NCBI GenBank assembly: GCA_035400625.1
Contig: DAOMZT010000002.1
Location: 137,649-201,648 of the forward strand
Source: an archaeon
GTDB taxonomy: Archaea > Iainarchaeota > Iainarchaeia > Iainarchaeales > CSSED10-239
Direction of reading: 5' to 3'
Length of the DNA: 64,000 bases
Shown here: positions 30,125 to 59,398 of the stretch, piece after piece
Numbering within the stretch: position 1 is the first letter of the stretch
Layout of the letters: every line of letters begins with the position of its first letter
Position numbers and translations under genes: made by a program
The notes under the pieces: generated by a model
What the model saw: only the letters and a program-made list of their open reading frames with translations
The model's database searches: none
Told to the model about the DNA's origin: nothing

Positions 30125-30469
30125 TTATCTCCCAAACCTTGCAGTACCCCAGATAAGTACAGATGTAAACCCATAAATCAAAAAGAAATATAATAAAAAC
30201 GCACCTGTTGCAATATAAAAATATTTAAATATAAAATATAACATAACACCTAACACAATAAATGTTAAAATACTATTACCAAATGCTGGTGCGACCATAC
30301 CATAAACAACAAAAGCAATAATAATCATAATAACATACTTAAGTATTGGAACTGCAGAAACAGCAAGTGGAACTGTAAAAATCACTAATAAAATTACAAT
30401 TAATATCTTCCAAATTAAGGAGGCATTTTTTAAAAATGGAATAAAGTTTAAAAATCCTTTAGTATTCAT
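30125..30469 (-). CDS. Small polytopic membrane protein (114 aa, ~4 TM), last gene of the giant-protein cluster
   Basis: Almost entirely hydrophobic. Its ATG overlaps the upstream stop by 1 nt (TAATG), suggesting translational coupling. Confidence 0.65.
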   Translation of the reverse strand: MNTKGFLNFIPFLKNASLIWKILIVILLVIFTVPLAVSAVPILKYVIMIIIAFVVYGMVAPAFGNSILTFIVLGVMLYFIFKYFYIATGAFLLYFFLIYGFTSVLIWGTARFGR

Positions 30470-30867
30470 TATCTTCTCCTCATTCTACTCATGGCTTGAC
30501 GTCTAGCAGCAAACAATTGTTCCATATCTACTTCTGATCCTTCATCACTCATTCGATAACCTTGACTTTGATTTCCAAGCATATCTTCAGGACTTGTGCC
30601 GCCTCCATGACCCTCTTGCATAGTTACAAAGAAGGTATCTACAAGAACAGAGCCAATACCTATTGTAATTAATATATATATGACATATATAGATCCAAAT
30701 ACTGGCCAGTAGAAAAATACTAAAACAATACAAACAATTACAATTGCTGTAATTGCTAGCCAATTTTTGGTTATTCTTTCTCTTACAAATATGATTATAA
30801 ATATTATAAATGCTAATTTTAATAAAAATGACATGTCGCTAAAAAAACCCAATATTGTAAAATCCAT
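30469..30867 (-). CDS. Small membrane protein (132 aa, ~3 TM) with charged C-terminal tail
   Basis: Three hydrophobic helices, then GHGGGTSPEDMLGNQSQGYRMSDEGSEVDMEQLFAARRQAMSRMRRR. It starts 12 nt after the stop of the 2178-aa gene. Confidence 0.65.
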   Translation of the reverse strand: MDFTILGFFSDMSFLLKLAFIIFIIIFVRERITKNWLAITAIVIVCIVLVFFYWPVFGSIYVIYILITIGIGSVLVDTFFVTMQEGHGGGTSPEDMLGNQSQGYRMSDEGSEVDMEQLFAARRQAMSRMRRR

Positions 30868-30879
30868 TTTTATTCTGCC

Positions 30880-33800
30880 TTATTTTATTATATCTGTTGT
30901 GGGGTTATCACTATTACCTAACACACCTGAATTTTCAATTATTTGATCTATTTGTTCTTGTGTAAAACCCACATTTTCATCAATCCATTTTATAGTTGTA
31001 ACTGTAAGTCCACTTCTAATACATGCATCATTATTTATATAATTTAAAAGACTATTTAAACTTACTGTGTTAGTGGTTAAATTTCCAACCCTTGTCATGC
31101 TTTTTATATTATCTGTTGTAGTTGAACCTTCTAAGTTTACTAAATAATAGATTTTTGATCCAGGGTTGTTACCACAACAATTTGAACCGCTATCACTTAA
31201 TACAAGATATATATCTGAAATGTTTTTTGCATAATAATTCATTGGCCAATACATCATTGTTTTTATTAATTTAATATTGTTATTATTGCCATAAACAGAT
31301 TCAAATTTCTTACCATCAATCATTGATTTTAAATAACTCCCTGCACTACTATAATATTGTCCATCTGCTAAAGTTTTGTTCTCATTGTTATAATCTTGCC
31401 ACACTAAAAAATTTGCAAATGCTATTGTAATATTTTGTGTTTCTCCTTTCCGTAATTTATAACTAAACCCAGAAACATTACTATTAACTACTTTTGCATA
31501 AAGTGGTATTGGATAACTTGGAGAGTATGTCATATCAATATTAAAAGATTGATCATCAGGGTCTATATTTGTAAGAATAAGATCTAACAACTTCCCTTCT
31601 GATCTTAGCGTATTTTTAAAATTGTCTGCATCATTTTGCAAAGTAATTATTGCCCTACTTTTGTTTTCATCATTGGCTGTTGGATATATAAAATATTCTT
31701 TTTGATCGCCTATCTGTACAGGCAAAGGTGTTTGTGAATCTTGTGTTAAAGAAGAGCCATAACCGACTCTTGCTGATCTTTTGTTTTGCTCATTACCAAC
31801 AATTCCTAAATCTCCATCTATAGGAATATAATATAATAAATTTCTCATAGTGTATGGCATTTCTCTTACTAATTCTAATTTTATATGTAGTGGTGTTGGT
31901 TTGCTTACAGAAAATTCCTCATTTATTGTTATTCTATATTTTCCTGGCTTTAGAGTTTTTACCTCATTACCTGAGCTATCTATTTCTATTTTTGACACTG
32001 TGAATTTATCTGCATTAATGTTTGCATCAGATAATAAATCATAATTATCCCAATTAGTATTTACTGCACCCATAAATTCATCATGATTTACAAAGTCAGA
32101 CAATAAGTCTTTTGTCACCCCATCGCTCATCAGATAAATATATTTGTTGTTTATACTTGTTCCTGATGTGTTAATTAAATTAAACACACTAAACAACATC
32201 TGTAAAGAATCACAATGCGTTTTAGTTTCATCATATCCTTCTAAAGTATTTTCTATACATTTTTCTTTCCAATTTGTTGAACCAGTCCAATCATATATTA
32301 TTTTTAGTTTTGCATTTTCTCCATTCTTACAATCATTAAGGTTTTCTGTATCACAATTTCCTAATATATAGAAATTATTTGATTCATCAATATTTATACC
32401 ACCAACCCCTAAACAAATATTTCCATACAAGCCATTTTCTCTTAGTAACTCTTGAAGATTTTGTAACCAAACAGATATTTTGAATTTTGTGTTTTTGATT
32501 GTGTCAAAGCTTTGACTTTGATTTATGCCAATTATCTTATATTCATATTTTATAGTCTTATTAATTTCTTTTTCTATTACTCTTATATATTCATTTGAAT
32601 TATTGCTCCCTTTTAATGAATCATAATTACCAATTACATTTAATGTTATCTTTTTAGTGTTATCTACGTTTTGTGAATCTATAGTAATTGGCAACTGTGG
32701 AGATGAAACATTTATTGATAGGTTATCATCTTGTTGCATATTAATGCTAGTTAAATTAAAATCATAGGTTCTAGTTTTATTTGTTGCAGAAACAATCATC
32801 TCAGATGTACAATTACTGCTTGTACAGTCCATTGTTTTTATTGTTGGCTGAGTAATAACAAATGCATCATTACTATCAAAAAGGCTTATTTTGGTTTCTA
32901 TAGTTTCTGTAAAAGTTATGCCATTTAGTGTATAGTTTATATTAATGGTTAGTGGCTCGTTTCTTAAATCTGGATTTATTATCTTGCTATTATTTAAATC
33001 AATTGTTATAAACAGTTGCTCAGAGGTGTTTGGAGCAATATTCAAATTATTAGAGGTTATTGTAATATAACCATTTAAGGATTCATTAATAATCGGAGTA
33101 ACATTTGCAAACAAAGGTTTATTAGAGCCATTTTCTATATTTAGATTAAAGTTCACACTTGAGTTTCTATTTTTTATCAGTTCAATAATTAAATCTTCTG
33201 TATCTTCTGTTGATACTTTTATTCCAGGTTTTGGCAAATCCACATACGAGGTGTTCAAATTTAGATTAAAAAATAAATTTGTTTTAAATGGGGCATTAAG
33301 GTCTAATCTTATTGGCTGATTATTATAATTTCCTGCATTAATTATATTATGATAACCACCTGTAACTGAGGCAATATCACTATCTTGTGTGGTATCTTCA
33401 GTTAAAGGAACTGATGGACCTTTTGGATCTTGTGGTGGCGTAGAACCATTTCCATTTGGCAAATCCAATATTGAAATTCTTGTTTTTATTTCTTTATTTA
33501 AGTCTGACAAATATAATGGGATGTTATTCTCTGTATATATGTAGTTGTTAATATCCTGATAATCTAAATATTGAGTAGGATTAGGATAAGGATCAGCAGC
33601 AATCAGCCATCCATAGACTTGATTTGTTCCTTTTATATAATATTTCTTTAGATCCTTTGTAAACTTAAAATTTCCATTGTAGGTATATTTTCCAATATTA
33701 TAAACTATAGTGTTTCTTGAAGAAATTTCTGTTCCATTTTCTAAGAACAATCTATAATTTGATTTTACTTGCTTAGATATTGTAACAGTGTTATTTGAAA

Positions 33801-36800
33801 GACCATAATTTGCAGGGAACAAGAAACTAAAATAAATATTGTGTCCTAATTTTGTAAGTGGCAAAGATAAATTTTTATTTTCTAGCATTCCATTAGAATT
33901 TGTTGTTCCAAACACTATTGTTTGTGGAGAATTAACAACAGCTGATATTTTAACTCCAGATATTGGACTACCAGATATATTTCTAACCCTAAAACTAATA
34001 ATATTATCTCCTGCATATATATCATTATTTTCTGTTGTATCTCCAGTAATAATTTCTATTATTACATTAGCATCTGTTGGATAATATGCTAAAACAGGAA
34101 CAGAATACGGATTTAAACCAGAAATGTTTAGTATATCTGTAGTAATATTAGAATCTGTATTTAAATCATAACTTGTACTATCATTATTTGGCTGGTATAA
34201 TGTGGCACTAGCCATACCAACATTGTGTATAAGATTGTTATTTTGATGATTATTTTGGTTGTTATTATGTTGATTAAATCCACTAGGCGTATTATTAATA
34301 AAGAAATCTGTTGCTGAAATTACTGAGCTGTGATCTATTTGGGTTGCTAGGGTTGCATCTATATCATTTATTGTATAATTTATTGCATTAATACCTGTTG
34401 CATTAATGTCTGTTTGAGTATTATTAGAATGATTTCTTTTCTTAAATTTATATGCATTATATATTAGATGATTATATGTATTTACTGAGTTTGCAACAAC
34501 CGACCCATTTATTGTATTATTTTTCAAATATAATAATTTCTGAGAATAATAATAGTTCTTACCAATCTCTAATATATATTTGCTACCAAGTGGAGTTAAT
34601 TTTTGACCAACTGTGTTTGTGGGTAAATTATAATCATAAATATCATATAAGAACATATAATCAGAATTATTAAATGTTAATGCGCGACTGTGATAAGGAC
34701 TATAGAAATACCCGTCAGGAACCATATCACATTCTTGCCAAGAAGTACTCAAATTAGGGCTCAACTTATATTCATTATCTTTTGTCTCTGTTAGCCCCTT
34801 ATAATAAATTACATAATCAGAAAGATTTGTTATACCATTTTGGAATTTCACATCAACAAAGAATTCTATTTGTTCTGCAAGAGTGTCTGAAAAGTCAATT
34901 TTTACCCATTTAAAGCCAGAAGTTGATGCTGAACAATTTGTTTGAGAATGATCAATATCGTTATTTGCTAAGAAATGGGCAGGATCCCATACTGCCGTTT
35001 CTCCAGAGAAGTTACAGCCATATTCGTTTTCGCTATTAAATGCTATTACTTTTTCTAATCTTAAATAATCTGATGGTAAAGCAACTCTTTTCCCTGCCCT
35101 GACATAAGCATATGCACGATCTCTGTTCTCTTTTTTATTAGTTGTTAATTTAAACTTTAATTTAAAGGTCTTAGAATATTCTGTTGCTAGATTGATTATA
35201 TTTTTATCAATATTTCCACTTTCATCATATATACCTAATAATTCAATATTAGAAAACGCTTCTGTTCTGGTATTTGAAAGAGCGATGGTGCGATAAACTT
35301 TTTGTCCAGGAATAAGTGTAATTAAGCTTGTTTGATATGTGGATTTGCCATCTGCAGTAATTATTGCATATATGTTTTGAGAAAATTCATTAAATATATA
35401 TTCTTTGTTAGAATCTTGAGAGGTTCCAGCCACAACATAGTTTGTTATTTCGTCTCCATTAGATTTAAAGAAATAAATATTATAATCAATTGTAGGTGTT
35501 ACTTTAAGATTTAATATTGTTGCCTGATCTTCTAATTCCACATCTAGTTCCATAAATTCATTAGCATCTAATCTCTCAGTTTGTGAAATGCCCTGTTCTG
35601 GACTTTTAATTGCATAGGCATAATATTTTCTACCAGACCTAATAAATGAGAAATTACAATCTCCTGAACTATTTGTTATTTGTGGACCAGCAATTGGTAT
35701 ATCGTCGTCACCATCTCTGAAAATATATACACTTGCTCCAACTACATTGTATGCGCTTCTAGAAACATTAACTCCAATTTTACCAGTATTAAGTTCAGAT
35801 GAATATTCTAATGGCACAGTAATTGTTGCATTATTATCAAAACTATTCAAATTTATAATGTCAGGGGCAAAATAACCATAATTTTCTGTATTTGTTACAG
35901 AAATTCTATAAGTTACTGAACTAGCAACTGGCAAAGAAAATGTTGCTTTATTAGTATCTTCTCTTGTGCCTACAGCTTTAACTAAATTTGTATCTGTTCT
36001 TTTTGTATATATTGTGATATCCCCCCTTATTTCTCTTTCAGTATTGCCATTAGCATCTACTAAAACTACATTTAATGTCTTTCCACCAGTTGTTAATAAA
36101 ACATTTCCTGTTGTATTATTATTTATTGATACTTGGTATGGTCCAAATCTATCTAATGTAGAAACATAACCTTCTTTACTTGCAGAAACTGTATATGCTC
36201 CTGGAGTTAGGTTAGTAAACACATAAGTTCCATAAATGGTTGTTGTTCCTGAAGAAACAAATATGTTTGATTCGTTTATTTGCGTTGTTGGATCATCAGG
36301 CCTATATAATTGTAAATACACATCTGGAATTGCTACTTGTGTGTTTTGATCCTTTACTGTTATTTCTAAGGTTCCATAGTTTTGTGCTATTGGTGTTAGC
36401 ATAATTACATTACTTTCAGGAACCAATCTGTTTTGAATAGAATTGTAAAATTCAGAATAAACGTCAACTCTTAAATCTCCACAACCAGCTGGAACACTAA
36501 CAGATAATTGTCCTGTGCTTGTGCTTTTTGAACTAGGATCTGGTGTAGTGCCTGAATTTGCACAGCGTAAATTTACTCTTATTGGTTTTGTTGCTAAAAG
36601 TATATCATTTTCTTTAAAAACTAAATTTCTGGTTGTTGGGTTCATTAGATGTAATTTTAAATTAGTGTCTATTTCTAATTTCACTAAAACTGAATTATTT
36701 CTGCCTTTAAGTTTTAGTTCTTTTGTTTGAGTATTATAAGATTCTTTTTCTACAATTAATTTAACATTTTTTTTCTTCCCAAAATCTTCAAAGATTGCTT

Positions 36801-37416
36801 CTCCAAAGACTCCTGTTTGAGATGTTTTGTTTATATCTCCAATTGATAATATTGCTGTTGCTCCAGAAACTGGCATATCTAAAATATCAGTCACAGTAAC
36901 TTCCAATACTGGTGATCCCATAAGACCACTAAAAATTCCTGAAAAGAATATTAACCAAATTAAAGCAAATATAAATATTATAAATAAAATAAAGCTAGGA
37001 AATACTTTGTCTATTTTATCTACTAATTTTCCTATTGGTATAACTTTATTTATGCCATCGATCATAGAATAATAAAGATTTTCAAAAAAGAAATATATCT
37101 TCTTAAAGAAAGTAATTATTGGTAAAAAGATATTTTTCTTATCTTTTTTTGGAGCTACAAGTGATGGTTTTTCTTTAGTGTCTTCTTTTAAAGATTTAGA
37201 AATTTCTTTAAGAATCTTTTCTTTTTCTTCTGGTGTTGTTATTATTTTTTCTTCTTTTTGTTTATTATCATATAATTTATCAACTACTCTTTTGGCTACA
37301 TCCTTATCATAGCCATCAAAGATAATTAATTTCTCTAATTCCTCTTTTGAGAAGCGATTTTCTCTGCCTTTTAGCATATTGTAGATTTTCTCTACTTCTT
37401 CATCTTTTTCATTCAT
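30880..37416 (-). CDS. Giant membrane-anchored surface protein, paralogue P1 (2178 aa)
   Basis: ATG start. About 150 aa of charged N-terminus is followed by a single TM helix (SFILFIIFIFALIWLIFFSG). Several ~90-aa segments show a carboxypeptidase-regulatory/transthyretin-like pattern (LEVTVTDILDMPVSGATAIL..., GTLEITVKDQNTQVAIPDVYLQLY...YGTYVFTNLTPGAYTVSASKEGY). It is collinear with P2 over most of its length. The C-terminal ~520 aa (30880-32430) is shared with P2, P3 and P4. Confidence 0.9.
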   Translation of the reverse strand: MNEKDEEVEKIYNMLKGRENRFSKEELEKLIIFDGYDKDVAKRVVDKLYDNKQKEEKIITTPEEKEKILKEISKSLKEDTKEKPSLVAPKKDKKNIFLPIITFFKKIYFFFENLYYSMIDGINKVIPIGKLVDKIDKVFPSFILFIIFIFALIWLIFFSGIFSGLMGSPVLEVTVTDILDMPVSGATAILSIGDINKTSQTGVFGEAIFEDFGKKKNVKLIVEKESYNTQTKELKLKGRNNSVLVKLEIDTNLKLHLMNPTTRNLVFKENDILLATKPIRVNLRCANSGTTPDPSSKSTSTGQLSVSVPAGCGDLRVDVYSEFYNSIQNRLVPESNVIMLTPIAQNYGTLEITVKDQNTQVAIPDVYLQLYRPDDPTTQINESNIFVSSGTTTIYGTYVFTNLTPGAYTVSASKEGYVSTLDRFGPYQVSINNNTTGNVLLTTGGKTLNVVLVDANGNTEREIRGDITIYTKRTDTNLVKAVGTREDTNKATFSLPVASSVTYRISVTNTENYGYFAPDIINLNSFDNNATITVPLEYSSELNTGKIGVNVSRSAYNVVGASVYIFRDGDDDIPIAGPQITNSSGDCNFSFIRSGRKYYAYAIKSPEQGISQTERLDANEFMELDVELEDQATILNLKVTPTIDYNIYFFKSNGDEITNYVVAGTSQDSNKEYIFNEFSQNIYAIITADGKSTYQTSLITLIPGQKVYRTIALSNTRTEAFSNIELLGIYDESGNIDKNIINLATEYSKTFKLKFKLTTNKKENRDRAYAYVRAGKRVALPSDYLRLEKVIAFNSENEYGCNFSGETAVWDPAHFLANNDIDHSQTNCSASTSGFKWVKIDFSDTLAEQIEFFVDVKFQNGITNLSDYVIYYKGLTETKDNEYKLSPNLSTSWQECDMVPDGYFYSPYHSRALTFNNSDYMFLYDIYDYNLPTNTVGQKLTPLGSKYILEIGKNYYYSQKLLYLKNNTINGSVVANSVNTYNHLIYNAYKFKKRNHSNNTQTDINATGINAINYTINDIDATLATQIDHSSVISATDFFINNTPSGFNQHNNNQNNHQNNNLIHNVGMASATLYQPNNDSTSYDLNTDSNITTDILNISGLNPYSVPVLAYYPTDANVIIEIITGDTTENNDIYAGDNIISFRVRNISGSPISGVKISAVVNSPQTIVFGTTNSNGMLENKNLSLPLTKLGHNIYFSFLFPANYGLSNNTVTISKQVKSNYRLFLENGTEISSRNTIVYNIGKYTYNGNFKFTKDLKKYYIKGTNQVYGWLIAADPYPNPTQYLDYQDINNYIYTENNIPLYLSDLNKEIKTRISILDLPNGNGSTPPQDPKGPSVPLTEDTTQDSDIASVTGGYHNIINAGNYNNQPIRLDLNAPFKTNLFFNLNLNTSYVDLPKPGIKVSTEDTEDLIIELIKNRNSSVNFNLNIENGSNKPLFANVTPIINESLNGYITITSNNLNIAPNTSEQLFITIDLNNSKIINPDLRNEPLTININYTLNGITFTETIETKISLFDSNDAFVITQPTIKTMDCTSSNCTSEMIVSATNKTRTYDFNLTSINMQQDDNLSINVSSPQLPITIDSQNVDNTKKITLNVIGNYDSLKGSNNSNEYIRVIEKEINKTIKYEYKIIGINQSQSFDTIKNTKFKISVWLQNLQELLRENGLYGNICLGVGGINIDESNNFYILGNCDTENLNDCKNGENAKLKIIYDWTGSTNWKEKCIENTLEGYDETKTHCDSLQMLFSVFNLINTSGTSINNKYIYLMSDGVTKDLLSDFVNHDEFMGAVNTNWDNYDLLSDANINADKFTVSKIEIDSSGNEVKTLKPGKYRITINEEFSVSKPTPLHIKLELVREMPYTMRNLLYYIPIDGDLGIVGNEQNKRSARVGYGSSLTQDSQTPLPVQIGDQKEYFIYPTANDENKSRAIITLQNDADNFKNTLRSEGKLLDLILTNIDPDDQSFNIDMTYSPSYPIPLYAKVVNSNVSGFSYKLRKGETQNITIAFANFLVWQDYNNENKTLADGQYYSSAGSYLKSMIDGKKFESVYGNNNNIKLIKTMMYWPMNYYAKNISDIYLVLSDSGSNCCGNNPGSKIYYLVNLEGSTTTDNIKSMTRVGNLTTNTVSLNSLLNYINNDACIRSGLTVTTIKWIDENVGFTQEQIDQIIENSGVLGNSDNPTTDIIK

Positions 37417-37422
37417 AATCTA

Positions 37423-39666
37423 TCATTTAATATTAAATAATGGTGTAAAGTATATTTCTTTTATTACTACATCGTTTTGTAATTTAAATTTTAAAAGATA
37501 TCTTTGTGCTTGGCAAAACAATCTTACATCATCAATACCATATCCTTTTTCTTCAGGGATATTAGTTAAATCAAAGTTTTCAGGGTTATAATGTAAAATG
37601 TCTTTTGCTATCTTATATTCTTTTATATTTGTTCCTGCAAATTGTTTTGAATCTGGCATTATATTTTCTCCAGTCTTTAGACTATAAACCACATAATTTT
37701 CATCACTTGGATATCCTGGTGGTTTAAACAAGCTTCCATCTGGATTAACATAATAAATATTTAAATCAGTAATCACCCCTGCATTATCAGTATAAATTGT
37801 ATATTCTGTGTCTGTTCTTAATGCGAAGTTGTTAAGTTCTAGGCTATCACATACAGGGCAATTAATCTCTTCTACATCAACACGCCCAACCTTACTTGAT
37901 TCGGAATCAAAATCATTTTGTATTATTCCTAAATTTGCAAGGCGCAATGTTAAATTATCTGTTTTATATGATAAACTGGAATTTCCAGAAGATGCTGCAT
38001 GACAACCATTAATATTTATTGCAGTTTCTTTTACTGGAACATACTTAATTAATTTTAAAGATTTTGGTAAGAAACTACCGGATTTTAAATAATTAATATT
38101 TATGTTACCTATTTTTGGATCTATGTTTTGATTATTGCAACTTTCATCACAATGACAAAAAAGACTATTTATATTTTCTACATTTTGTTCATTTAATTCA
38201 TTAGTTATGTTAAAGTTAAGAGATAGATTTTCTAATTTATCAATATTTATTGAACCAATAGAGCCTGCCTTACCTTGTCCACGATTTTTATTTACATTAA
38301 CTTTGCCACTCAATGCATAATAATAGAAATCTTTTTCATTTATAAAATTAGATATATTATAATCACTTATTGAACCACCAACGCCACTTTCACCATACTT
38401 GCCCCCACCATCGCTTTTGTTGCCTCCCATCTCTCCATCTCCTGCAGATAAATCATATCTTAATATCCCTTGATTCACAATATTGTATTTTGTATTAGGT
38501 ATATAAATAAATTTTATATGCCCCCCATAACCCCCTTTACCGCCATTTGCAGAATCAGCACCACATGTATTATTGCCACCATTACCACCTCTTCCACCAT
38601 TACCTGATTTTATGGTGATATTAAATTCTGCTTGTTGCTGTTCATCTTCTTTTAAATTTTCTAAATTATAAACTATAAAATTACTATGGCCTCCATTTCC
38701 TCCTGCACCACCTGATTTTGGAGAACCACCACAATTGCCTTTTTCGCCACTGCCTTTTGCACCATTTGCTCCATTTCCTGATTTTAAAAAAACATTAAAT
38801 TTACCATAATTTTTGATAAACCCTTCTTGTATTATTAATACTGATTGCCCACCATTACCCCCAACACCACCATTTTTATTATATCCTTTAGATCCTGCAC
38901 TACCTTTTGCTCCATCGGCAGCAAATAAATTAATATCAACAGTTCCATAATTAATTATATTATATGCAGATAATATAGCCACACCTCCATGAATTCCATG
39001 ATCTATAGGATCAGAATATGTTGTACTGTGATCATTTGGTTTTGTAGCAATTAGTGAAATATTTAAATCGGCATTTTTTTCTATAATTAAATTTTGAAAA
39101 TTAAGTCTTGTTCCATGACCTACTCTATTAGGACTACCCACATTTCCATCAGTATCTAATGCCCTTCTTTGTCTTTCTGTTATATTTATTAGTGTGTTGG
39201 TTAATATTTTAGTTTCATTAACATCCATACTTAGTATGCCAGGGATTGGGCTATATCCAACTAGCAACTCTTCATCATTATCCACTATAAAATTCAAAGT
39301 AATTGAATTGTTAGGATTACCAGAATCAAATCTTATTTCATCTATCCCAGAAATTGTTATTTTTTCGTTATTCTCAGTAATTTTAAAATTCTGATTTTGA
39401 GAAATCCACAATATAAATTTTTTATTGTTACAATGCTCATTATTAGAAATCCTCACAAAATTAAAATTAGGATTTATTATTTCTTCAGAATTGTTCAATT
39501 TTAAAAAATATTCATTTGATTGCGAAGCCAACGTTCCTTCATACTCTACATCTTGTAGTACATTCTGCATATTTTGAAAACAATCAACAGCATAAATTGG
39601 AACAATCACTATTTGTATAAATATTAAAATCATTAAAATTTTTAATGTTGTTTTTATTTTTGACAT
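37423..39666 (-). CDS. Secreted Gly-rich solenoid-like repeat protein (747 aa), paralogue of 47327..49399
   Basis: Signal peptide MSKIKTTLKILMILIFIQIVIVPIYA. The central region (nt ~38250-39000) contains 4-5 units of [hydrophobic/Asn beta-like stretch, e.g. IKNYGKFNVFLKSGNG] plus [GGxGGN-type Gly run, e.g. GGVGGNGGQ, GGAGGNGGH, GGRGGNGGN, GGKGGYGGH]. The C-terminal part (NCPVCDS...) aligns with the 690-aa protein (YCPHCEV...). Its stop lies 6 nt before the P1 start. Confidence 0.85.
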   Translation of the reverse strand: MSKIKTTLKILMILIFIQIVIVPIYAVDCFQNMQNVLQDVEYEGTLASQSNEYFLKLNNSEEIINPNFNFVRISNNEHCNNKKFILWISQNQNFKITENNEKITISGIDEIRFDSGNPNNSITLNFIVDNDEELLVGYSPIPGILSMDVNETKILTNTLINITERQRRALDTDGNVGSPNRVGHGTRLNFQNLIIEKNADLNISLIATKPNDHSTTYSDPIDHGIHGGVAILSAYNIINYGTVDINLFAADGAKGSAGSKGYNKNGGVGGNGGQSVLIIQEGFIKNYGKFNVFLKSGNGANGAKGSGEKGNCGGSPKSGGAGGNGGHSNFIVYNLENLKEDEQQQAEFNITIKSGNGGRGGNGGNNTCGADSANGGKGGYGGHIKFIYIPNTKYNIVNQGILRYDLSAGDGEMGGNKSDGGGKYGESGVGGSISDYNISNFINEKDFYYYALSGKVNVNKNRGQGKAGSIGSINIDKLENLSLNFNITNELNEQNVENINSLFCHCDESCNNQNIDPKIGNININYLKSGSFLPKSLKLIKYVPVKETAININGCHAASSGNSSLSYKTDNLTLRLANLGIIQNDFDSESSKVGRVDVEEINCPVCDSLELNNFALRTDTEYTIYTDNAGVITDLNIYYVNPDGSLFKPPGYPSDENYVVYSLKTGENIMPDSKQFAGTNIKEYKIAKDILHYNPENFDLTNIPEEKGYGIDDVRLFCQAQRYLLKFKLQNDVVIKEIYFTPLFNIK

Positions 39667-41372: not shown

Positions 41373-44300
41373 TTAATTATTGTAATTGGTTTCTATTTGG
41401 TTTCTATTACTTCGTGTAATTTTTATCTTATCTGAAACCCATTTGATCTTTGAACTTGATAGAGTATTTGAGATACATGCGTTCCCATCTTTTACTTGGT
41501 CTAACATTTGATTTATTGAGTAAATGTCTGGAACTCTTGAGACTAGAGCAAGTTCTGTTGTGCCTTCTAAACTACTCAAACCATATAGTCTTGACTCAAC
41601 ATTATTATCTAAATCTGATAATGTTAATTTAATATCTAAATAATCTACATTTACAGGCAAATAAATCATTGATTCTAATAGATATTTCTCATCTAAATTG
41701 TTTCCAAATTTGTCTTTTGTAAGTTCGTGTCTTAAATAGTTTGCATGTGACCCAAAGACAGCTATATCATCCATTGCATTATTATAATTTGAATCAGAGA
41801 ATAATTTCCATTTGAATAAATTGTTTGTGCTTATAGGGAATTGATTATTAACCATTAATTTATAGTTAAAACTCTTATCTTTTATGCCATTTACTCTTGC
41901 AAACACATTTATTGGTCTTGAAGGAGTAAAGTTAAAAACTATGTTTTTCTTTTCTGAACCAGATGTATTATCTACTGCTAAATCTAATAAATTACCATTT
42001 GTATTTAAAACATCAGTTACTTGCCAATTTACAAGATAGTTGCTTGGATAATTTGCAGTAATATTTGTTACTCCTGAACAATCAGAGGTACAATTTTCTG
42101 CAACCCCATATAATTTTATTGATGTTGCAGATGGTTCTGTTACTAACAAATCAGAATATTCATAATTTCCTACAATTGTTGAACCATAACCTACTCTATG
42201 TGCCTTGTCATTTACTACTCCAAAGTCCCCATCTATTGGAATATAATAAAACAGATTGTTTTTATTTAATGGAATATTTTGAACCAATTCTAGGTTAATA
42301 TTAAGATCCTTTGTAAAAGCAGGATCAAAATCATTAACAACAATTTTGTATTTTCCGACTTCTTTTGTTGGATTGTTGTTTGGCGTTCTTTTAGTTATTG
42401 TGATTTCTTTATCGTGGTCAGAATCCAAATATTTTTCTGAAAATGCAGAAGAAATACTATGTGTAATAAATTGATCATAATGTCCCCTAAAGTCCTCTAA
42501 CAAGTCTTCTGATTCTATGCCATCATACATCAAATAGATATGATAATCTTTGCTTGTGTCATAATCAGAAGAGCTAATTAATGTAAATATTGAGTATAGT
42601 GCTTGAACAGAATCACAATGTGTTTTATCAGCATCATATTCCTCTTTATCATCTATACAAAGAGTTTTCCAATTTAATGTTTGGTCTCCCCAATTATATA
42701 ATACTTTTGGAAGAGCAGATTCTCCAACACTACAAGCTTCTTGTTCTTCAGTATCGCAAATACCTAAAATAAAATAATCGCCCCCTTGTGCTTGTCCACC
42801 TACTCCCATACAAAAATGACCAGTAACCCCTATATTGTTTAATACAGTTACTGGAGTTTCAGGTATATATGTAACAATTATTGTTATTGGCTTTATCTCT
42901 GTTACTTGCACATTATTTACAGTTAGATAGAAATTCATTTGTTTATTATAGGTTTCCTCTAAATCTGGAATAGTCATTAGATTGCTGTAATTCCCGTCTA
43001 TTTTTATTGGCACCTCTATGTGGTTTTGAGGTGTGATAGGCATTGGTATATCAATTGAAGCAGATTCATAGGCAAGAGGATTGGAATTTAAAAGCTCTAT
43101 TCCTGTTAATTCTAAACTATAGCTTTTAGTGTTGTTTTTTATATTATACACCATTGTTGAACTACAATTGTCTTCTCCCTTACAAGCAATGGTTAAGTGC
43201 GTTCCTGGCAAAGACAATTGGTAACTTTTGTTTTTTGGATATAATGTTATTTTTATTGGAACCTCATATATAAAATTCTCTGTTTGATTACCAATCTTTA
43301 TATTTATGTTTGCATCTTTTTCTATAATTTCTGTAAAATTAATATTCTTAAGAACAAATGTAAAATTAAAATTACCAACCAATCTATTTTGAGAAGAATT
43401 GTTTGTGTGTGCCTGAGTAAAGTTAATATAATTAGAGATGTCTTCTCCAACAATCTGTGTATCTAAGATATCATAGTTTATTGGGTCGGTAAATAAAAGA
43501 TTAAGATCATAACTTATTGAAATATTATCAATAACTTCTTTTATTAGCTCTATTCCTGCCCCTTCTTCACCCTCATAAAAACCATTAACATTAGTTGTTG
43601 TAAACTTAGAAAAATCCTGTATATCTAATATTTTAATTCTTGCTGAAGAGTTTGTGTCTTTGTAAAGTGTAATGTCTGGCATTTCTCCTGTATTTTTCAC
43701 AGTAAATATGTTATTATAACTAAAATTAATATCTTGAATATCTGTGTCAGGATCAATATGTAACCCTGCAGAAATCACATTGCTTTGGTTTAGGTCTTTT
43801 GGTAAATTATTAACAGCCATTAAATTCTGATTAATTATTTCTTCTAAAAACACCTCGTTGTCAGAAACAGAAACCGCTTCTAGTTTTACTACTCTATTTG
43901 TGTTATTTTTAATAATATAGTCTTTTACCAAATCTGTTGCTTTTTTCTTACCACCAATGTTTGTTAAAAGAATATCATATCTTAATCTGTTGTTGTTTGT
44001 TATTAATTTATTGTCAAGATCATAAATATTTATTCCTGTGCCAATAACTTGAGAAAAGGTTAGTTCGTTATTTGGAAGATTAGAGCCTGGTATTGTAAAA
44101 ATAAAGGTAATGGTTTTTCCTGAGTCTTCTAAAGGTATAAATATCTCTGTATTTAATGTGTTGTTTGTTATTTCTCCTAACTCTGTAGCAATTGTTTGAC
44201 CAGAGACTATATATTTTACAGCTATGTTATTTTCATAGTTGCCTGTTTTGTTCTTTAAACTAATATTAAGATCATTAGAACCAACATAAATTTTTCCATC

Positions 44301-47300
44301 TGTTGCATTGGAAGTAACAACTGGAACATATGTGCTCTCAGAATATGATAAAATATTTGTTGAGGCTGTTGCTAAAGATGAATTGTCTTTCTTAAATAAT
44401 TGTGTTCTTAATGTTGGCTGATCAGTTAATGAAAAGAAGTCTATTGGTTTGCCAATTAAATTGTTAACAAAGTAATAACCAATACTTGTGGTCTTTGAAG
44501 ATATGTTAACAGAAGTATTATTATCTATTGTTTGTATGATTGGATTTGTTGATGTTTTATCTTTAAAATAACTGTTTGTAAAAACATAGTTGTTATTTGT
44601 GTTTTGAGTGTCTGTAATTATGTCTCCTGTTCTGTTGGTATCAGAGAACTGTATGAAGCTTAAACTATAATTATAGTCCTTTCCAATATAAAGTATATAA
44701 TCTGAACCAAATTTAGTTAGTTCTGAATTTCGGTCAAATAACTTAATTACATAAGAATAATTGGAATTGTCAAAAGGTATTGCTTCTACTTGGGTTGGTG
44801 CATAGAAATATCCTTCTGGCCTTATTGACCATTCATTCCAGTTTGAAAGGTTTGGAGAAAAGGAAAATGTTTCTAAATCTGAATTTAATGATCTGTAATA
44901 GATTTTGTAATTGTCAATGGTTGTAATTTCGTTTTTGAATTTTACATTTACAGAATATTCTATAATGTTTGCAGTAACATCACTAAAATCAAACTCTAGC
45001 CATTTGTATTTTCCTGCTATGCAGTTGTTAAAAGAATAATCAGATTCAAAGTTTGTAATAAAATAGTTGCTATCAAAAGATTCTAGATCTCCATGATATC
45101 TACAGCCTGTTCTTATCTCTGTGTCTTTTGGAACAAACAAGTCTGTGTTTGTTAAATAAATAAAGTCTGCATTTTCTGTTAGATATCTTCCTGCTTTTAT
45201 AAATGCTTTCTTTATTACGTTTGTTCTGTCTGAGCCAAATACAGTCTTAAATTTTAACTTATATTCTTTTGTTAAATCGTTATTTCCTGAAAAGGTTAAA
45301 TTGTCTATCTTTATTGTGCCTGTGGAATCATAAAGACCTAAAAAGGAGGTGGCTGTTTGAATTTCTGATATAGTAGGGAAGGTTATTTCTTTGTAAGCTA
45401 CCTGTCCAGGAAATAGTGAGATAAGGTCTGTTTGATATAATAGGTCGTCTTTTTCAATAGTCAAATATATTCTTGAACAATCATCACCACAATTAAACAC
45501 AAAGGTTTTGTTTGTATCTTCAGTAACATTTGTAGCAATTACATTTTCTGTAGGTATTTGCTCTCCAGAGACTTCAAAAAAAGAAATGTTATAATCTTGA
45601 TTTGGTGTTATTTTAAGATTAAGGGTTTTAGATTGATTACCTAAAGACACATTTAATTCTAAAACATCATTACTATCAAGCTCTTGTGCTGGCAGAGAAT
45701 CACCATCTGCACTTTCGTTTCTTAATATAGCATAAGCGTAATATTCTCTTTTGCTTTTTACTAAATCAAAATTTGCATCTCCGCTTGAATTTGTAGTTTT
45801 TGGATTTTCTGGATTGTATAGCACGTATTCATCATCTAACTCATAAAATAAATAAACTAATGCATTTGCTCTCTTATAGCCGTTTTTTGTAACATTAACA
45901 TTTATGCTCCCACTATTTAATGAGGACAAATATTCTAAAGGTATTTCTATGGTTGTGTTAGTGTCTGCAGAAAGATTATTGACATCTACTGGTGTTGGTG
46001 GCAAATAGCCATTATCTTCTGTGTTTGATACAATTATTCTATAATTATTATTTGCAACTAGAGCAAATGTTGTTTGGTTCACATCTCTTCTAGTAGTAAT
46101 TAAACTTGAGACATTCTGGTCTCTTTTATAAACTGAGATATTGCCAGTAACTGGAACACTAGTGTTTTGATCTTTTAATTTAACTATTAGATTTGTAAGT
46201 TTTCCTATGGTACAGCCATTACCATTAGGATTAGGGGTAACTAAACCTGTTAATAATGGACTATTACAATCAATTTTTCCATCTTTACAAAAAGGAGCAT
46301 ATATTGGGTTTGAACAGTTAATGTTTGCTAAATCTGATGCTGTAATTAAAGTAATGTTTGCAGTTGTTATGTTATTATTAACAATATTATAAGGCCCTAG
46401 CTTTGGAAGGCTTATATATCCTGTTTTATCTATTGATAAAAGATAATTTGATTGAGGTGCATTAAACTTATATTTACCATAAACATCTGTTGTTCCTGTG
46501 CTATATGTGACATCTGATTCGTTTGTTGGTGTTTGTAAATCATCTACATTATGTAGTCTTAGATTAGCATATGGTACTGCTTGTCCGATTATGTCTTTTA
46601 CAGTAACTTCTAATGTGCCTGTATTTGTATTAACTCTTGTTAGTTCAACTATGTTATCTTCGCTAACATTTCTGTCAGTTATTAGTTCATAATTTGAAGA
46701 TACCACACTTACTAACAAAAAACCACAATAGCCAGGCTGTAAGACATTTGTTCTTCCGTTTGTTACTGTTGTTGTTCTAGGTTCTGGTATTTTTTCAGAA
46801 TTAGAACATTTAAAAGTAACATTAAGATTATCAGTAACAACCACATCATAGCTTTTAAATATTATTTCTCTGCGTCTCTCAGAAGAGGGCCCCTTAAATT
46901 CTCCAGAGGTTGTGTCCATTTCAAGAGTTATTGTTTCTTCTTTTAGTTTTTTATCTAGTTTTATTTGTTTTGTTGTAGGAAAATAATTTTCTTTTGTTGC
47001 TTTTATTTCTAGATCTTTAAATTTTAGATCTTTAAACTCAGTATAGCCAAAGGCATCTGTGCTTTGTGTTATTTCGTTATTTATTGTTACGCTTACTCCA
47101 CCTAATGAAAAGTTCTGTTCATCTACCACATATACTTCTAGTGTTTTTTTGCTTCCACTAAATAATAATATTAAGATAATTATCAAGACAATTACCGCAA
47201 TAATAATAAATATTATTTTTGTAAATTTCTTTTTTGGTTTTTCTGTGGTCTGAGGATTGTTCTGTTCTACTGTTTGTTTAATTTCGTTTATTAGTTTTTC

Positions 47301-47312
47301 TTGTTCGCTCAT
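41373..47312 (-). CDS. Giant membrane-anchored surface protein, paralogue P2 (1979 aa)
   Basis: ATG start. A short N-terminus is followed by a TM helix (IIFIIIAVIVLIIILILLF). CarboxypepD_reg-like segments are present (LEVYVVDEQNFSLGGVSVTI..., GTLEVTVKDIIGQAVPYANLRLH...YGKYKFNAPQSNYLLSIDKTGY). It is collinear with P1. The C-terminal module lies at 41373-42830. Confidence 0.9.
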   Translation of the reverse strand: MSEQEKLINEIKQTVEQNNPQTTEKPKKKFTKIIFIIIAVIVLIIILILLFSGSKKTLEVYVVDEQNFSLGGVSVTINNEITQSTDAFGYTEFKDLKFKDLEIKATKENYFPTTKQIKLDKKLKEETITLEMDTTSGEFKGPSSERRREIIFKSYDVVVTDNLNVTFKCSNSEKIPEPRTTTVTNGRTNVLQPGYCGFLLVSVVSSNYELITDRNVSEDNIVELTRVNTNTGTLEVTVKDIIGQAVPYANLRLHNVDDLQTPTNESDVTYSTGTTDVYGKYKFNAPQSNYLLSIDKTGYISLPKLGPYNIVNNNITTANITLITASDLANINCSNPIYAPFCKDGKIDCNSPLLTGLVTPNPNGNGCTIGKLTNLIVKLKDQNTSVPVTGNISVYKRDQNVSSLITTRRDVNQTTFALVANNNYRIIVSNTEDNGYLPPTPVDVNNLSADTNTTIEIPLEYLSSLNSGSINVNVTKNGYKRANALVYLFYELDDEYVLYNPENPKTTNSSGDANFDLVKSKREYYAYAILRNESADGDSLPAQELDSNDVLELNVSLGNQSKTLNLKITPNQDYNISFFEVSGEQIPTENVIATNVTEDTNKTFVFNCGDDCSRIYLTIEKDDLLYQTDLISLFPGQVAYKEITFPTISEIQTATSFLGLYDSTGTIKIDNLTFSGNNDLTKEYKLKFKTVFGSDRTNVIKKAFIKAGRYLTENADFIYLTNTDLFVPKDTEIRTGCRYHGDLESFDSNYFITNFESDYSFNNCIAGKYKWLEFDFSDVTANIIEYSVNVKFKNEITTIDNYKIYYRSLNSDLETFSFSPNLSNWNEWSIRPEGYFYAPTQVEAIPFDNSNYSYVIKLFDRNSELTKFGSDYILYIGKDYNYSLSFIQFSDTNRTGDIITDTQNTNNNYVFTNSYFKDKTSTNPIIQTIDNNTSVNISSKTTSIGYYFVNNLIGKPIDFFSLTDQPTLRTQLFKKDNSSLATASTNILSYSESTYVPVVTSNATDGKIYVGSNDLNISLKNKTGNYENNIAVKYIVSGQTIATELGEITNNTLNTEIFIPLEDSGKTITFIFTIPGSNLPNNELTFSQVIGTGINIYDLDNKLITNNNRLRYDILLTNIGGKKKATDLVKDYIIKNNTNRVVKLEAVSVSDNEVFLEEIINQNLMAVNNLPKDLNQSNVISAGLHIDPDTDIQDINFSYNNIFTVKNTGEMPDITLYKDTNSSARIKILDIQDFSKFTTTNVNGFYEGEEGAGIELIKEVIDNISISYDLNLLFTDPINYDILDTQIVGEDISNYINFTQAHTNNSSQNRLVGNFNFTFVLKNINFTEIIEKDANINIKIGNQTENFIYEVPIKITLYPKNKSYQLSLPGTHLTIACKGEDNCSSTMVYNIKNNTKSYSLELTGIELLNSNPLAYESASIDIPMPITPQNHIEVPIKIDGNYSNLMTIPDLEETYNKQMNFYLTVNNVQVTEIKPITIIVTYIPETPVTVLNNIGVTGHFCMGVGGQAQGGDYFILGICDTEEQEACSVGESALPKVLYNWGDQTLNWKTLCIDDKEEYDADKTHCDSVQALYSIFTLISSSDYDTSKDYHIYLMYDGIESEDLLEDFRGHYDQFITHSISSAFSEKYLDSDHDKEITITKRTPNNNPTKEVGKYKIVVNDFDPAFTKDLNINLELVQNIPLNKNNLFYYIPIDGDFGVVNDKAHRVGYGSTIVGNYEYSDLLVTEPSATSIKLYGVAENCTSDCSGVTNITANYPSNYLVNWQVTDVLNTNGNLLDLAVDNTSGSEKKNIVFNFTPSRPINVFARVNGIKDKSFNYKLMVNNQFPISTNNLFKWKLFSDSNYNNAMDDIAVFGSHANYLRHELTKDKFGNNLDEKYLLESMIYLPVNVDYLDIKLTLSDLDNNVESRLYGLSSLEGTTELALVSRVPDIYSINQMLDQVKDGNACISNTLSSSKIKWVSDKIKITRSNRNQIETNYNN

Positions 47313-47326
47313 AATTAATCTTTTTT

Positions 47327-49399
47327 CTAGTCACTAAATAATTCTCTTAATGGTACAAATGGGAAATTAAAATTTTTTATAGTACCACCATCAGAAGTAA
47401 TCTTTCCATCTAAAATATATTCTTGGCCATAACAGAACAGATAATCTTCTTGGTTTAGTTCATCAATATCATCTTCTGGAGTATGGCTATAATAAATTAA
47501 ATCTTCTGGTTTTATTTTATATTCATAATTGTTTGTCTTTTGGTTAAAAACACCAGAAATTGGATTTTTATTTGTATAAACAGGTAATTGTTTATTATCT
47601 GTTCTTTTTGTATAATATTTTGATTGATTTAAAGGATTGGAATAATAAACTTTTAAATCTCCAACATTAATTGTTCCGTCAATATTAGAAAAAAGGCTAT
47701 AATCTCTTGTATATCTGTTTTGAGAATCATCAAGAGGCATAACTTCACAATGTGGGCAATAATTAGAGGTTAAATCAAATTCTGAATTTAACATTGAAAT
47801 AACATCTGAGTTTGTTGCTTCTATCCTTATATATTCTTTAATATCAAAATCAACTTTTGTTGGATTAATATAACATCCCTTTATGCTAATATTGTTATTA
47901 AAATATTCATCATCAACTATTGGTGTGCCTGCAGAAATAGTTTTTGGAAGATAAGAGCCATTACTTAAATAGTTTATTTTTATATCTGATAATTTTAGAT
48001 TTAAATAAGGTAATGGCAAGATATTGCCACCATTATCTTCTCCATCATAACCATTATTACTTGTTGCAATAACAGCCAAATCATATTGATGATTAGTAAA
48101 ATTAAAATTAGATGTGATTTCAAAACCATTACTTGATTTATTCTCTAAAAAATCAATAGTAATATCTCCTATTTTTCCTGGTATTCCAAAAGATGCAGAA
48201 TTCTCTGGTGCACAAGTTCCATCTGGACTAATATCAACATCTCCTAATGCACCATTTTTTATATTTAATTTAAATTCGGAGGAATTTAATTTATTTAAAA
48301 AAGTATTAATTTTAATATCACTTATATTCCCGCCATGACCTCCATCTCCATTATGTCCATCTTTGCAATGATCATCATAATTTTCTGCACGTTGCACACC
48401 GCCCGAACCGCCATCTCCTGCGGTTGCATTAAATATTATACTCTTATAATTAGTTATTTTGTCTATATTTGAAATAAATATATTCCCTGCGTTGCCTCCA
48501 TTACCCCCATTATATGTTTCATCTTGTGGGCCTTCATCTTTTTCACTATAGCCTCCTTTTCCGCCTTTCCCTGTTTCTAAACTGATTTTTAAATTATTAT
48601 AATTTTCTATTTGTTTAATACTAAAGTTTAAATCTCCCGAATTATCTCCATCACCCGCACTAAAACCACCATCATGAATAGTTCCTGTATCCCCCCCTGA
48701 AAAAGATTGCCCGTCTCCACCATTCCCTGTTTTTAAATCAATATCAATAAAACCATAATTCTGAATATTATTAATTTTTAAATTTACATATCCACTTCGA
48801 GTTCCATGTTTTGATTCTAAGAATGCATAATAATTATTTCCAAAAGCATCTACTCCATAACCAAAACTTCGATTTCCTATTTTGCCATCATTGCTTTTTA
48901 AATTTAAATTTAGATTTGCATTAGGATAAACAAATATTGATTCTATATTTACATCGTGAGATTTATCAGTTGCTTGCAATGGGGAATATGTTTTAATATC
49001 AAGTTTTTTTTCAGAATTTACAATAATATTTGGTAACGTTATAGATTTTGCATCTTCATATATCGTTATTTTTGAATTATTGTTTGCAATAAGATTTATG
49101 TTTGTATAATCAAAAAAATTAAAATTAAAATAATCTGATTTCAATAAGAAATTATATCCATTTGTATAAAAATTAATTTTATAATCATTACAACTTGTTA
49201 AACTAAATGGAGGTGCTGTGGTTTTTACTAATACAGAATCATTAATATTACAATTACATTCTAATTTATCATGATTACAGTCACAACTTACTTTGCCAGT
49301 CAATGGAGAATCATTATAAATTTCAACATTACAATTAGCAAACACTCCATTTGTTGCCAATATTATTATTAAAAATATAATTGCATATTTTATTTTCAT
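47327..49399 (-). CDS. Secreted Gly-rich solenoid-like repeat protein (690 aa), paralogue of 37423..39666
   Basis: Signal peptide MKIKYAIIFLIIILATNGVFA. Gly-run units at nt ~48300-48745 (TGNGGDGQSFSGGD, GKGGKGGY, NGGNGGNAGN, GDGGSGG, GDGGHGGN) are separated by I/N-rich strands (IENYNNLKISLETG, ITNYKSIIFNATAG). Its stop lies 14 nt before the P2 start. Confidence 0.85.
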   Translation of the reverse strand: MKIKYAIIFLIIILATNGVFANCNVEIYNDSPLTGKVSCDCNHDKLECNCNINDSVLVKTTAPPFSLTSCNDYKINFYTNGYNFLLKSDYFNFNFFDYTNINLIANNNSKITIYEDAKSITLPNIIVNSEKKLDIKTYSPLQATDKSHDVNIESIFVYPNANLNLNLKSNDGKIGNRSFGYGVDAFGNNYYAFLESKHGTRSGYVNLKINNIQNYGFIDIDLKTGNGGDGQSFSGGDTGTIHDGGFSAGDGDNSGDLNFSIKQIENYNNLKISLETGKGGKGGYSEKDEGPQDETYNGGNGGNAGNIFISNIDKITNYKSIIFNATAGDGGSGGVQRAENYDDHCKDGHNGDGGHGGNISDIKINTFLNKLNSSEFKLNIKNGALGDVDISPDGTCAPENSASFGIPGKIGDITIDFLENKSSNGFEITSNFNFTNHQYDLAVIATSNNGYDGEDNGGNILPLPYLNLKLSDIKINYLSNGSYLPKTISAGTPIVDDEYFNNNISIKGCYINPTKVDFDIKEYIRIEATNSDVISMLNSEFDLTSNYCPHCEVMPLDDSQNRYTRDYSLFSNIDGTINVGDLKVYYSNPLNQSKYYTKRTDNKQLPVYTNKNPISGVFNQKTNNYEYKIKPEDLIYYSHTPEDDIDELNQEDYLFCYGQEYILDGKITSDGGTIKNFNFPFVPLRELFSD

Positions 49400-59381: not shown

Positions 59382-59398
59382 TATTTTTCCCTTTTTTA

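Follow-up and report, generated by a model that had tools for sequence, protein, structure and literature searches.

What structure do glycine runs of the GGxGGN type form when they recur in an exported archaeal protein, and what role could such a protein have immediately upstream of a giant gene? The question is raised by two genes of a 64,000-nt stretch of the archaeal contig DAOMZT010000002.1 (hereafter the window; all coordinates are window positions, and all genes of interest lie on the minus strand). Gene B1 (P0001; open reading frame [ORF] 37423..39666, minus strand) encodes an exported Gly-repeat protein of 747 amino acids (aa), and gene B2 (P0002; ORF 47327..49399, minus strand) encodes a paralogue of 690 aa. 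The explanation that we favour, and that we consider moderately probable when all its parts are taken jointly, is that the repeats form a bundle of polyproline-II (PPII) helices on a stack of beta-hairpins, within a secreted, rigid partner of the giant protein, and not a Ca2+-binding beta-roll.

Repeat units and their glycine pattern

The paralogy of the two proteins, proposed in an initial annotation of the window, was recovered by BLASTP (28% identity over 491 aa, E 2e-20). That annotation had also described 4-5 units per protein, each with a strand-like segment followed by a Gly run. All the segments it quoted (IKNYGKFNVFLKSGNG, FNITIKSGNG, IENYNNLKISLETGKG, and ITNYKSIIFNATAGDG) and all the runs (GGVGGNGGQ, GGAGGNGGH, GGRGGNGGN, GGNGGNAGN, and GDGGHGGN) are found in the sequence, and the intervals in which it placed them correspond to residues 223-472 of B1 (38250-39000) and 219-367 of B2 (48300-48745). 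The repeat region of B1 covers residues 229-472 (38251..38982, minus strand) and is made of five units of 46, 53, 56, 50, and 39 aa, in each of which a beta-hairpin, turning at IxNYG, comes before a pair of Gly runs (xGNGGxGxxG ... GGxGGNGG). Cross-detection shows that these units of about 50 aa are genuine repeats: a profile of unit 2 built from the orthologues, with B2 left out, detects units 1 and 3 of B1 (E 5e-5 and 2e-7), as well as three in-register units of B2 (E 6e-7 to 8e-6). In B2, the repeat region spans residues 205-411 (48167..48787, minus strand) and consists of three clear units, matched by the unit profiles at 205-256, 257-306, and 307-358, and of a degenerate one. Natural variation in the number of units, between 4 and 5, is seen within the family: B2 is one clear unit short of B1, and the orthologue P0004 (682 aa) lacks exactly one unit, equivalent to B1 residues ~305-353 (38608-38754). 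Within the genome that contains the window (0.82 Mb), the module is present only in B1 and B2.

The placement of glycine along the units is regular. Its autocorrelation is 0.356 at lag 3 and 0.05 at lag 2 (block-shuffled control: 0.024 +/- 0.066), and the lag-3 signal is seen in 30 out of 30 homologues. This period of three fits PPII helices, which have three residues per turn. Among the same homologues (25-60% identity), the Gly positions of the repeat region are 72% conserved, versus 37% for the non-Gly positions, and individual glycines are invariant or at least 90% conserved. Conservation also follows the triplets: the GG positions of GGxGGxGG are 80-90% conserved and the x positions 20-40%, which is expected when two of the three faces of a helix pack on its neighbours. 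At the scale of the unit, mean conservation is 0.59 in the Gly runs and 0.31 in the loops between them, which are the most variable segments and contain indels. The runs are 9-13 residues long, with beta-hairpins between them.

The initial annotation had likened the GGxGGN core to the turn of RTX beta-rolls and to the PGRS repeats of mycobacteria, and had raised the possibility that it binds Ca2+. An RTX beta-roll needs tandem nonapeptides of the form GGxGxDxUx (where U is a large hydrophobic residue), several in a row. In favour of GGxGGN acting as the GGxGxD calcium turn, the hexapeptide GGxGx[DN] has four occurrences in B1 and two in B2. However, a regular expression for the full nonapeptide (GGxGx[DN]x[hydrophobic]x) gave 0 matches in both proteins, which lack the hydrophobic position 8. 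The GGxGG cores are spaced by 18-53 residues, with no tandem 9-mers, and the autocorrelation of Gly at lag 9 is -0.03. Furthermore, the turn position of the conserved GGxGGNGG is Asn, not Asp, and the HemolysinCabind profile (PF00353) has no match at E <= 1 in 12 members of the family. We thus regard a Ca2+-binding beta-roll as having almost no chance of being the right description.

The comparison with PGRS fares better. Both types of proteins have runs of GGx triplets with frequent Asn, and the PGRS domains of mycobacterial PE_PGRS proteins are themselves modelled, and predicted by AlphaFold, as polyglycine-II (PGII) sandwiches at the cell surface (PMC9436101). The resemblance does not extend further: PGRS domains are long uninterrupted GGA/GGN arrays placed behind a PE domain, exported by type VII systems, and found only in mycobacteria, whereas the B proteins have short runs that alternate with beta-hairpins and belong to an archaeon. 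We rejected their membership in PE_PGRS, since there is no Pfam match to PE and the Gly runs are short and split by hairpins, with no uninterrupted GGA/GGN array.

Predicted fold and its nearest matches

AlphaFold2 (AF2) modelled the full chain of B1 with a predicted local distance difference test score (pLDDT) of 85.9 and a predicted template modelling score (pTM) of 0.85, using a 12-sequence alignment. The model of the domain alone (residues 183-492) has a pLDDT of 91.4 and a pTM of 0.89. In both models, every unit begins with a beta-hairpin that turns at the conserved IxNYG, and the 26-40 Gly-rich residues that follow have pLDDT values of 82-98 and are assigned neither to helices (H) nor to strands (E) by DSSP. 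The initial annotation had contemplated two outcomes for such models, a regular solenoid or disordered linkers, and it is the former that we observe: an ordered, repetitive, solenoid-like fold, with high pLDDT (82-98) in the Gly runs. Flexible or disordered linkers between small folded elements would suit the composition of residues 249-472 (25% Gly), which is often that of disordered regions, but they are ruled out by the pLDDT of these stretches and fit neither the strict triplet phasing of Gly nor its conservation, at or above 90%, among the 30 homologues. We hold this alternative to be very improbable.

We searched 350,542 PDB chains for folds similar to the domain model using Foldseek. 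The first two ranks are occupied by the springtail antifreeze protein 7jjv, made of nine PPII helices (probabilities 0.94 and 0.99; template modelling [TM] scores of 0.44 and 0.59 on the target), and ranks 7 and 16 by the snow-flea antifreeze proteins 2pne and 3bog. These proteins, the best structural matches of the domain, are bundles in two layers, in which Gly-rich PPII helices run antiparallel and turn their Gly inward (bioRxiv 10.1101/2023.11.25.568672). They differ from the B proteins in several respects. Antifreeze proteins have 81-126 aa and consist of nothing but a bundle, with short turns and a flat face that binds ice, whereas in the B proteins a beta-hairpin would lie between successive pairs of helices, polar or charged residues are exposed, and the organism lives in anaerobic digesters. 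The match reaches only E 5.6e-3, and no homology is detectable. The whole chain gave only weak Ig-like local matches in the PDB, none at E <= 0.001, and the viral predicted structures of BFVD gave no match with a meaningful probability.

The remaining matches of the domain are beta-solenoids (probabilities <= 0.05), and they raise the alternative of a conventional all-beta parallel solenoid, in which the Gly runs are tight turns or arcs of a three-sided beta-helix and the PPII conformation is an artefact of the prediction. The list that comes after the antifreeze proteins is indeed typical of such folds (polygalacturonase 1k5c, FHA/TPS 1rwr, pectate lyases, SufD, CsgA, FapC), and regular hairpins recur every ~50 residues. 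Yet the matches to beta-helices and solenoids have probabilities of 0.01-0.05 and TM scores of 0.1-0.2. Runs of 9-13 residues are too long for turns, their period is 3 and not 2, and they are confidently predicted, but not as strands. Pfam profiles of the Beta_helix or PbH1 type, a check suggested by the initial annotation, match neither B1 nor B2, nor any other of the 12 members searched. We consider this alternative improbable, and the weak solenoid matches are compatible with stacked hairpins forming a solenoid-like base. The solenoid originally proposed is therefore retained as an ordered repetitive fold with such a base, but not with the Gly runs as turns between the strands of an all-beta structure, because these runs have period 3, are ordered without being beta, and match PPII bundles.

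Among solved structures, the best and most recurrent sequence matches are Obg proteins. When profiles of both alignments were compared with the sequences of the PDB, N-terminal domains of Obg made up 6 of the top 7 matches, the best of which are 1udx (E 0.0012) and 1lnz (E 0.0017). The latter match extends from chain residue 5 to 130 and takes in almost all of the Obg fold; across the two profiles, the best two matches range from E 0.0012 to 0.0025. The Gly runs of Obg were shown experimentally to be left-handed type-II helices on a beta base (PMC9545696), so there is experimental precedent for helices of this type in a motif of that form. The common unit is a beta-strand, an xG[DN]GGxG run, a loop, a GGxGGxGG run, and a beta-strand. 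The difference lies in the architecture: in Obg, an eight-stranded barrel carries three hairpins of this kind, in a cytoplasmic protein that is fused to a GTPase and binds the ribosome, whereas the archaeal B proteins have 4-5 tandem units, are exported, have other flanking domains, and score under the family thresholds.

These matches could reflect true homology with the Obg fold, the B proteins being an exported tandem expansion of its strand-PPII-PPII-strand unit, an alternative that concerns the origin of the domain and is compatible with a PPII bundle. B2 matches the Pfam family GTP1_OBG (PF01018) with 20.7 bits (E 3.5e-4), under the gathering cut-off of 27, and two adjacent units (residues ~269-317 and ~324-380) give sub-threshold stretches of 19.5 and 18.6 bits, whose rough sum is 29.2. 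In addition, the profile of the B family detected an Obg-like N-terminal fragment (P0072) among 1.84 billion proteins (E 2.5e-5). Against this, GTP1_OBG is matched by only 2 of 12 family members at E <= 1, B1 has no Pfam match at all, and hhalign gave the domain alignment a probability of 12% against residues 1-160 of Escherichia coli ObgE, too weak to claim homology. A Gly-rich composition inflates such scores, Pfam finds no GTPase domain in B1 or B2, and none of the top 50 fold matches is an Obg chain. Common descent with Obg is thus unlikely in our view; if it were correct, the B family might be the first relative of the Obg fold outside GTPases.

From the residues left blank by DSSP and from four independent lines of evidence (the fold matches, the period of three, the pattern of conservation, and the matches to Obg), we infer that the Gly runs are left-handed PPII (polyglycine-II) helices, so that the repeat region, with its cross-detected units, can be described as a predicted PPII-helix bundle on a stack of beta-hairpins. 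It would be a composite solenoid. Each unit of ~50 residues would supply one beta-hairpin, with its turn at IxNYG, to a layer of stacked hairpins, and two antiparallel left-handed PPII helices (the xGNGGxG and GGxGGNGG runs) to a tightly packed bundle of ~8-10 Gly helices. In the GGx triplets, two glycines would face neighbouring helices, where only Gly fits, and the third residue, like the loops that connect both helices within a unit, would be exposed and free to vary. The result may be a rigid rod or plate decorated with variable x residues and inter-helix loops. PPII bundles are known but rare. Natural Gly-rich domains of this kind are few: springtail antifreeze proteins, the Obg fold, acetophenone/acetone carboxylase, phage gp38, and ALK/LTK (bioRxiv 10.1101/2023.11.25.568672). 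If the models are right, what is new here is an archaeal extracellular family with a distinct topology, in which every ~50-residue coil repeats one beta-hairpin and one PPII hairpin, and whose genomic partnership is conserved.

Distribution of the family and its association with giant genes

Neither B1 nor B2 belongs to a family of Pfam, NCBIfam, or PHROG. An exhaustive profile search of 1.84 billion representative proteins identified ~45 full-length relatives (E <= 1e-25) and ~55 other proteins that match the Gly module alone (profile positions ~240-424). We also searched 61 related genomes: the full-length family is present in 17 out of 22 genomes of the same family in the Genome Taxonomy Database (GTDB) and in none of the 39 genomes from other families of the order. 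The full-length family is thus small, unnamed, and confined to one archaeal family. The module alone is found in more varied contexts, including surface proteins of bacterial type with CARDB and TSP3, with MACPF and Flg_new (Listeria-Bacteroides repeats), with the beta-domain of inverse autotransporters, or with Laminin_G_3. Several of the distant matches (P0052, P0054, P0055, P0057, P0058, P0059, and P0067) display the arrangement strand / xGNGGxGG / loop / GGxGGxGG / strand. In none of these distant proteins, publicly named only 'hypothetical protein', is the module itself described by a Pfam or NCBIfam model. A module that recurs without annotation in varied bacterial surface proteins is an uncurated, widespread extracellular domain that deserves a family model.

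The B genes are closely linked to giant genes. In the direction of transcription, the minus strand encodes a giant of 2493 aa, a protein of 145 aa (C2), B2, a giant of 1979 aa (A2), then, after a 288-nt spacer, a protein of 467 aa (C1), B1, a giant of 2178 aa (A1), and two proteins of 132 and 114 aa. A1 (30880..37416, minus strand) has an N-terminal membrane anchor and Ig-like domains (CarboxypepD_reg/SpaA), and A2 (41373..47312, minus strand) is 30% identical to it over ~2100 aa. The initial annotation had placed the B genes directly upstream of giants, and this is the case: A1 starts 6 nt downstream of B1 (37423 to 37416) and A2 14 nt downstream of B2 (47327 to 47312). From this spacing, the initial annotation proposed that B and its giant may be co-expressed stoichiometrically. 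The predicted co-occurrence with giants in other genomes was also recovered. When A-type giants were searched for with the last 666 aa of A1, we found 16 pairs of B and A on the same contig in 13 genomes, and in 16 out of 16 B is the gene immediately upstream of A, on the strand that encodes A.

The association includes other genes. C1 (39681..41084, minus strand) ends 14 nt upstream of B1 and is the first gene of a C-B-A module; C2 (49470..49907, minus strand) lies upstream of B2. Both encode exported proteins. A1 is followed by two small polytopic proteins with transmembrane-like segments (132 and 114 aa; 30125..30867, minus strand). The order C (exported, 120-576 aa), B, A (~2000-2350 aa), and membrane proteins of ~130 and ~115 aa is kept in five relatives that were retrieved through their proteins, as well as in a different genus (G012). 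The gene at the C position has 470-576 aa in L002, L003, L006, and L008, with a counterpart of 120 aa in G012, and the two small membrane proteins are at the same position in L002, L003, L006/L007, L008, and G012, which makes them likely parts of the same apparatus. The double module of the window is also found in L003, G005, G006, and G009 and is therefore older than the genus. B, A, and C were duplicated as a set and have diverged in parallel (identity of 28% between the B proteins and 30% between the A proteins).

Elsewhere in the window, the genes are of archaeal type (TRM5/TYW2, DUF63, ATP-dependent DNA ligase, a TrmB-like domain, and an archaeal-type ProRS), and the source assembly has 5 contigs, 0.82 Mb, and a completeness of 85%, which together point to a DPANN-type archaeon with a small genome. 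The B1 gene is present in metagenomes of anaerobic digesters, biogas plants, and wastewater. We compared contigs from four independent runs (anaerobic digester or activated sludge, 2016-2024) and found 0 differences over the gene (37423-39666). The population that carries B1 appears to be clonal across facilities.

Possible roles of the B proteins

B1 and B2 have a single N-terminal hydrophobic segment each and no further transmembrane-like segment, and are on this basis predicted to be secreted. In B1, the predicted signal peptide covers residues 1-26 (39589..39666, minus strand; ...PIYA|VDC): the hydrophobic segment spans residues 10-28, it is a low-confidence helix in the AF2 model, and the cleavage site is a prediction from the sequence. 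The B and C proteins have only such a signal-like segment, and the giants have an N-terminal membrane anchor. B is thus probably the partner subunit of the giant encoded directly downstream. It would be secreted without an anchor of its own and held on the cell by its cognate membrane-anchored giant, at about 1:1 and together with C, where it could give a surface fibre a rigid module, for structure or for binding, with which this archaeon touches other cells or surfaces.

The same gene order could result if B helped the giant to assemble or to be secreted, or acted independently of it. In phage T4, gp38 is a folding chaperone for gp37. Operon linkage alone cannot tell a chaperone from a subunit, and each giant paralogue retains its own B. 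But an exported, rigid repeat protein of 700 aa, rich in disulfides (six invariant Cys), would be an unusual chaperone, and we think it unlikely that B is a helper of this sort.

If B is instead a subunit of the giant fibre, its closest functional comparison, by analogy and not by membership, is the gp38 adhesin with a PGII sandwich on the tip of the T-even phages' long tail fibres. This gp38, of the S16/T2 type (PDB 6F45), associates a beta-helix with a PGII sandwich, has conserved Gly motifs and variable loops, and sits as a monomer on the long fibre encoded beside it (PMC12032242). Like gp38, the B proteins would combine beta-solenoid layers with polyglycine-II helices, have conserved Gly motifs alternating with variable loops (0.59 vs 0.31, a similarity of layout only), and would be accessory proteins of a very long fibre protein encoded next to them. 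They differ in that gp38 has ~260 aa and its Gly motifs are clustered at the C-terminus. One may go further and propose that, in archaeal giant surface fibres, the B proteins form the tips that bind receptors, as a cellular counterpart of gp38 in which the PGII bundle is iterated with beta-hairpins into a new beta-hairpin/PPII-hairpin solenoid, whose variable loops recognise the host of a DPANN episymbiont, with a cognate tip for each giant paralogue. We see this as a speculative possibility, with the odds clearly against it. If it were true, a rare fold class, with about seven known natural families, would be a determinant of the specificity between an archaeal symbiont and its host.

Several results weigh against the view of B as a PPII-bundle partner of the giants, or against its extensions. 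Concerning the fold, the AF2 alignments are shallow (9-12 sequences), AF2 may over-predict PGII packing in Gly-rich sequences, the best Foldseek E-value to PPII bundles is 5.6e-3, and there is no fold match at E <= 0.001. B1 has no Pfam match, the hhalign probability with ObgE is low, and no match to known structures is strong enough to prove homology. As for gp38, 6f45 is not among the top 50 fold matches in the PDB, there is no PHROG match at E <= 0.1, and strain-level variation is null in the four digester runs (the contigs are identical over the whole gene), which gives no support to a fast-evolving receptor-binding tip. As for the partnership, two genomes of the family have an A-type giant and no detected B, and one has B and no A, all three being fragmented assemblies. 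Finally, two runs labelled RNA-Seq, which were examined for signs of transcription, behave like DNA (one is a flat 35-kb contig, and the library sources are METAGENOMIC and GENOMIC).

The strictly conserved C-B-A operon occupies much of a 0.8-Mb genome. It probably serves for cell contact in an uncultured DPANN archaeon that is common in anaerobic digesters. Knowing the fold would provide a defined, expressible domain from which to start testing what the giants bind, and PPII-bundle domains are of interest for protein design.

The regions that flank the repeats of B1 are both rich in beta structure. The N-terminal one (residues 27-228; 38983..39588, minus strand) is a succession of beta-hairpins in the AF2 model and the most variable part of the protein (mean conservation of the top residue: 0.31). 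The C-terminal one (residues 473-747; 37426..38250, minus strand) consists of AF2 strands with weak Ig-like local fold matches; its columns that are invariant in the 30-sequence alignment include C555, C603-P-x-C606-D, and C718, and it ends with the strand FTPLFNI[KR]. In total, six Cys are invariant in the 30 family members (B1 residues 29, 79, 555, 603, 606, and 718, including the CPxCD motif). They probably form three extracellular disulfides, or possibly a metal site. Cys29 follows closely on the signal peptide, but the residues before it (D, T, A, N, L) are a poor match to a lipobox. In the subfamily of B1, there are two extra Cys in adjacent inter-helix loops, those of units 2 and 3, which could staple these loops.

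The B and C proteins end with a similar motif of two strands: YLLKFKL-x9-IYFTPLFNIK in B1 (37426-37520), YLFRFKL-x13-LEYPFKIHK in C1 (39684-39770), IFRFYF-x15-LTFPFKLS in C2 (49473-49560), and NFNFPFVPLRELFSD in B2 (47330-47420). A B protein from another genus terminates in FPFTPLFKN. This shared C-terminal strand may be used for docking or assembly.

The third giant of the window (2493 aa) has a different environment. It is preceded by exported proteins of 775 and 638 aa (57465-61726), which have no Gly runs and no similarity to B or C, and the C-terminal probe from A1 does not match it at E <= 1e-5. The partnership with B is thus specific to A-type giants. A 686-aa ORF (61823-63883) matches the C-terminal third of the 2493-aa giant (49888-52100), with 26.5% identity over 739 aa (E 5e-44), and from this similarity it is a putative stand-alone copy of the distal part of a giant.

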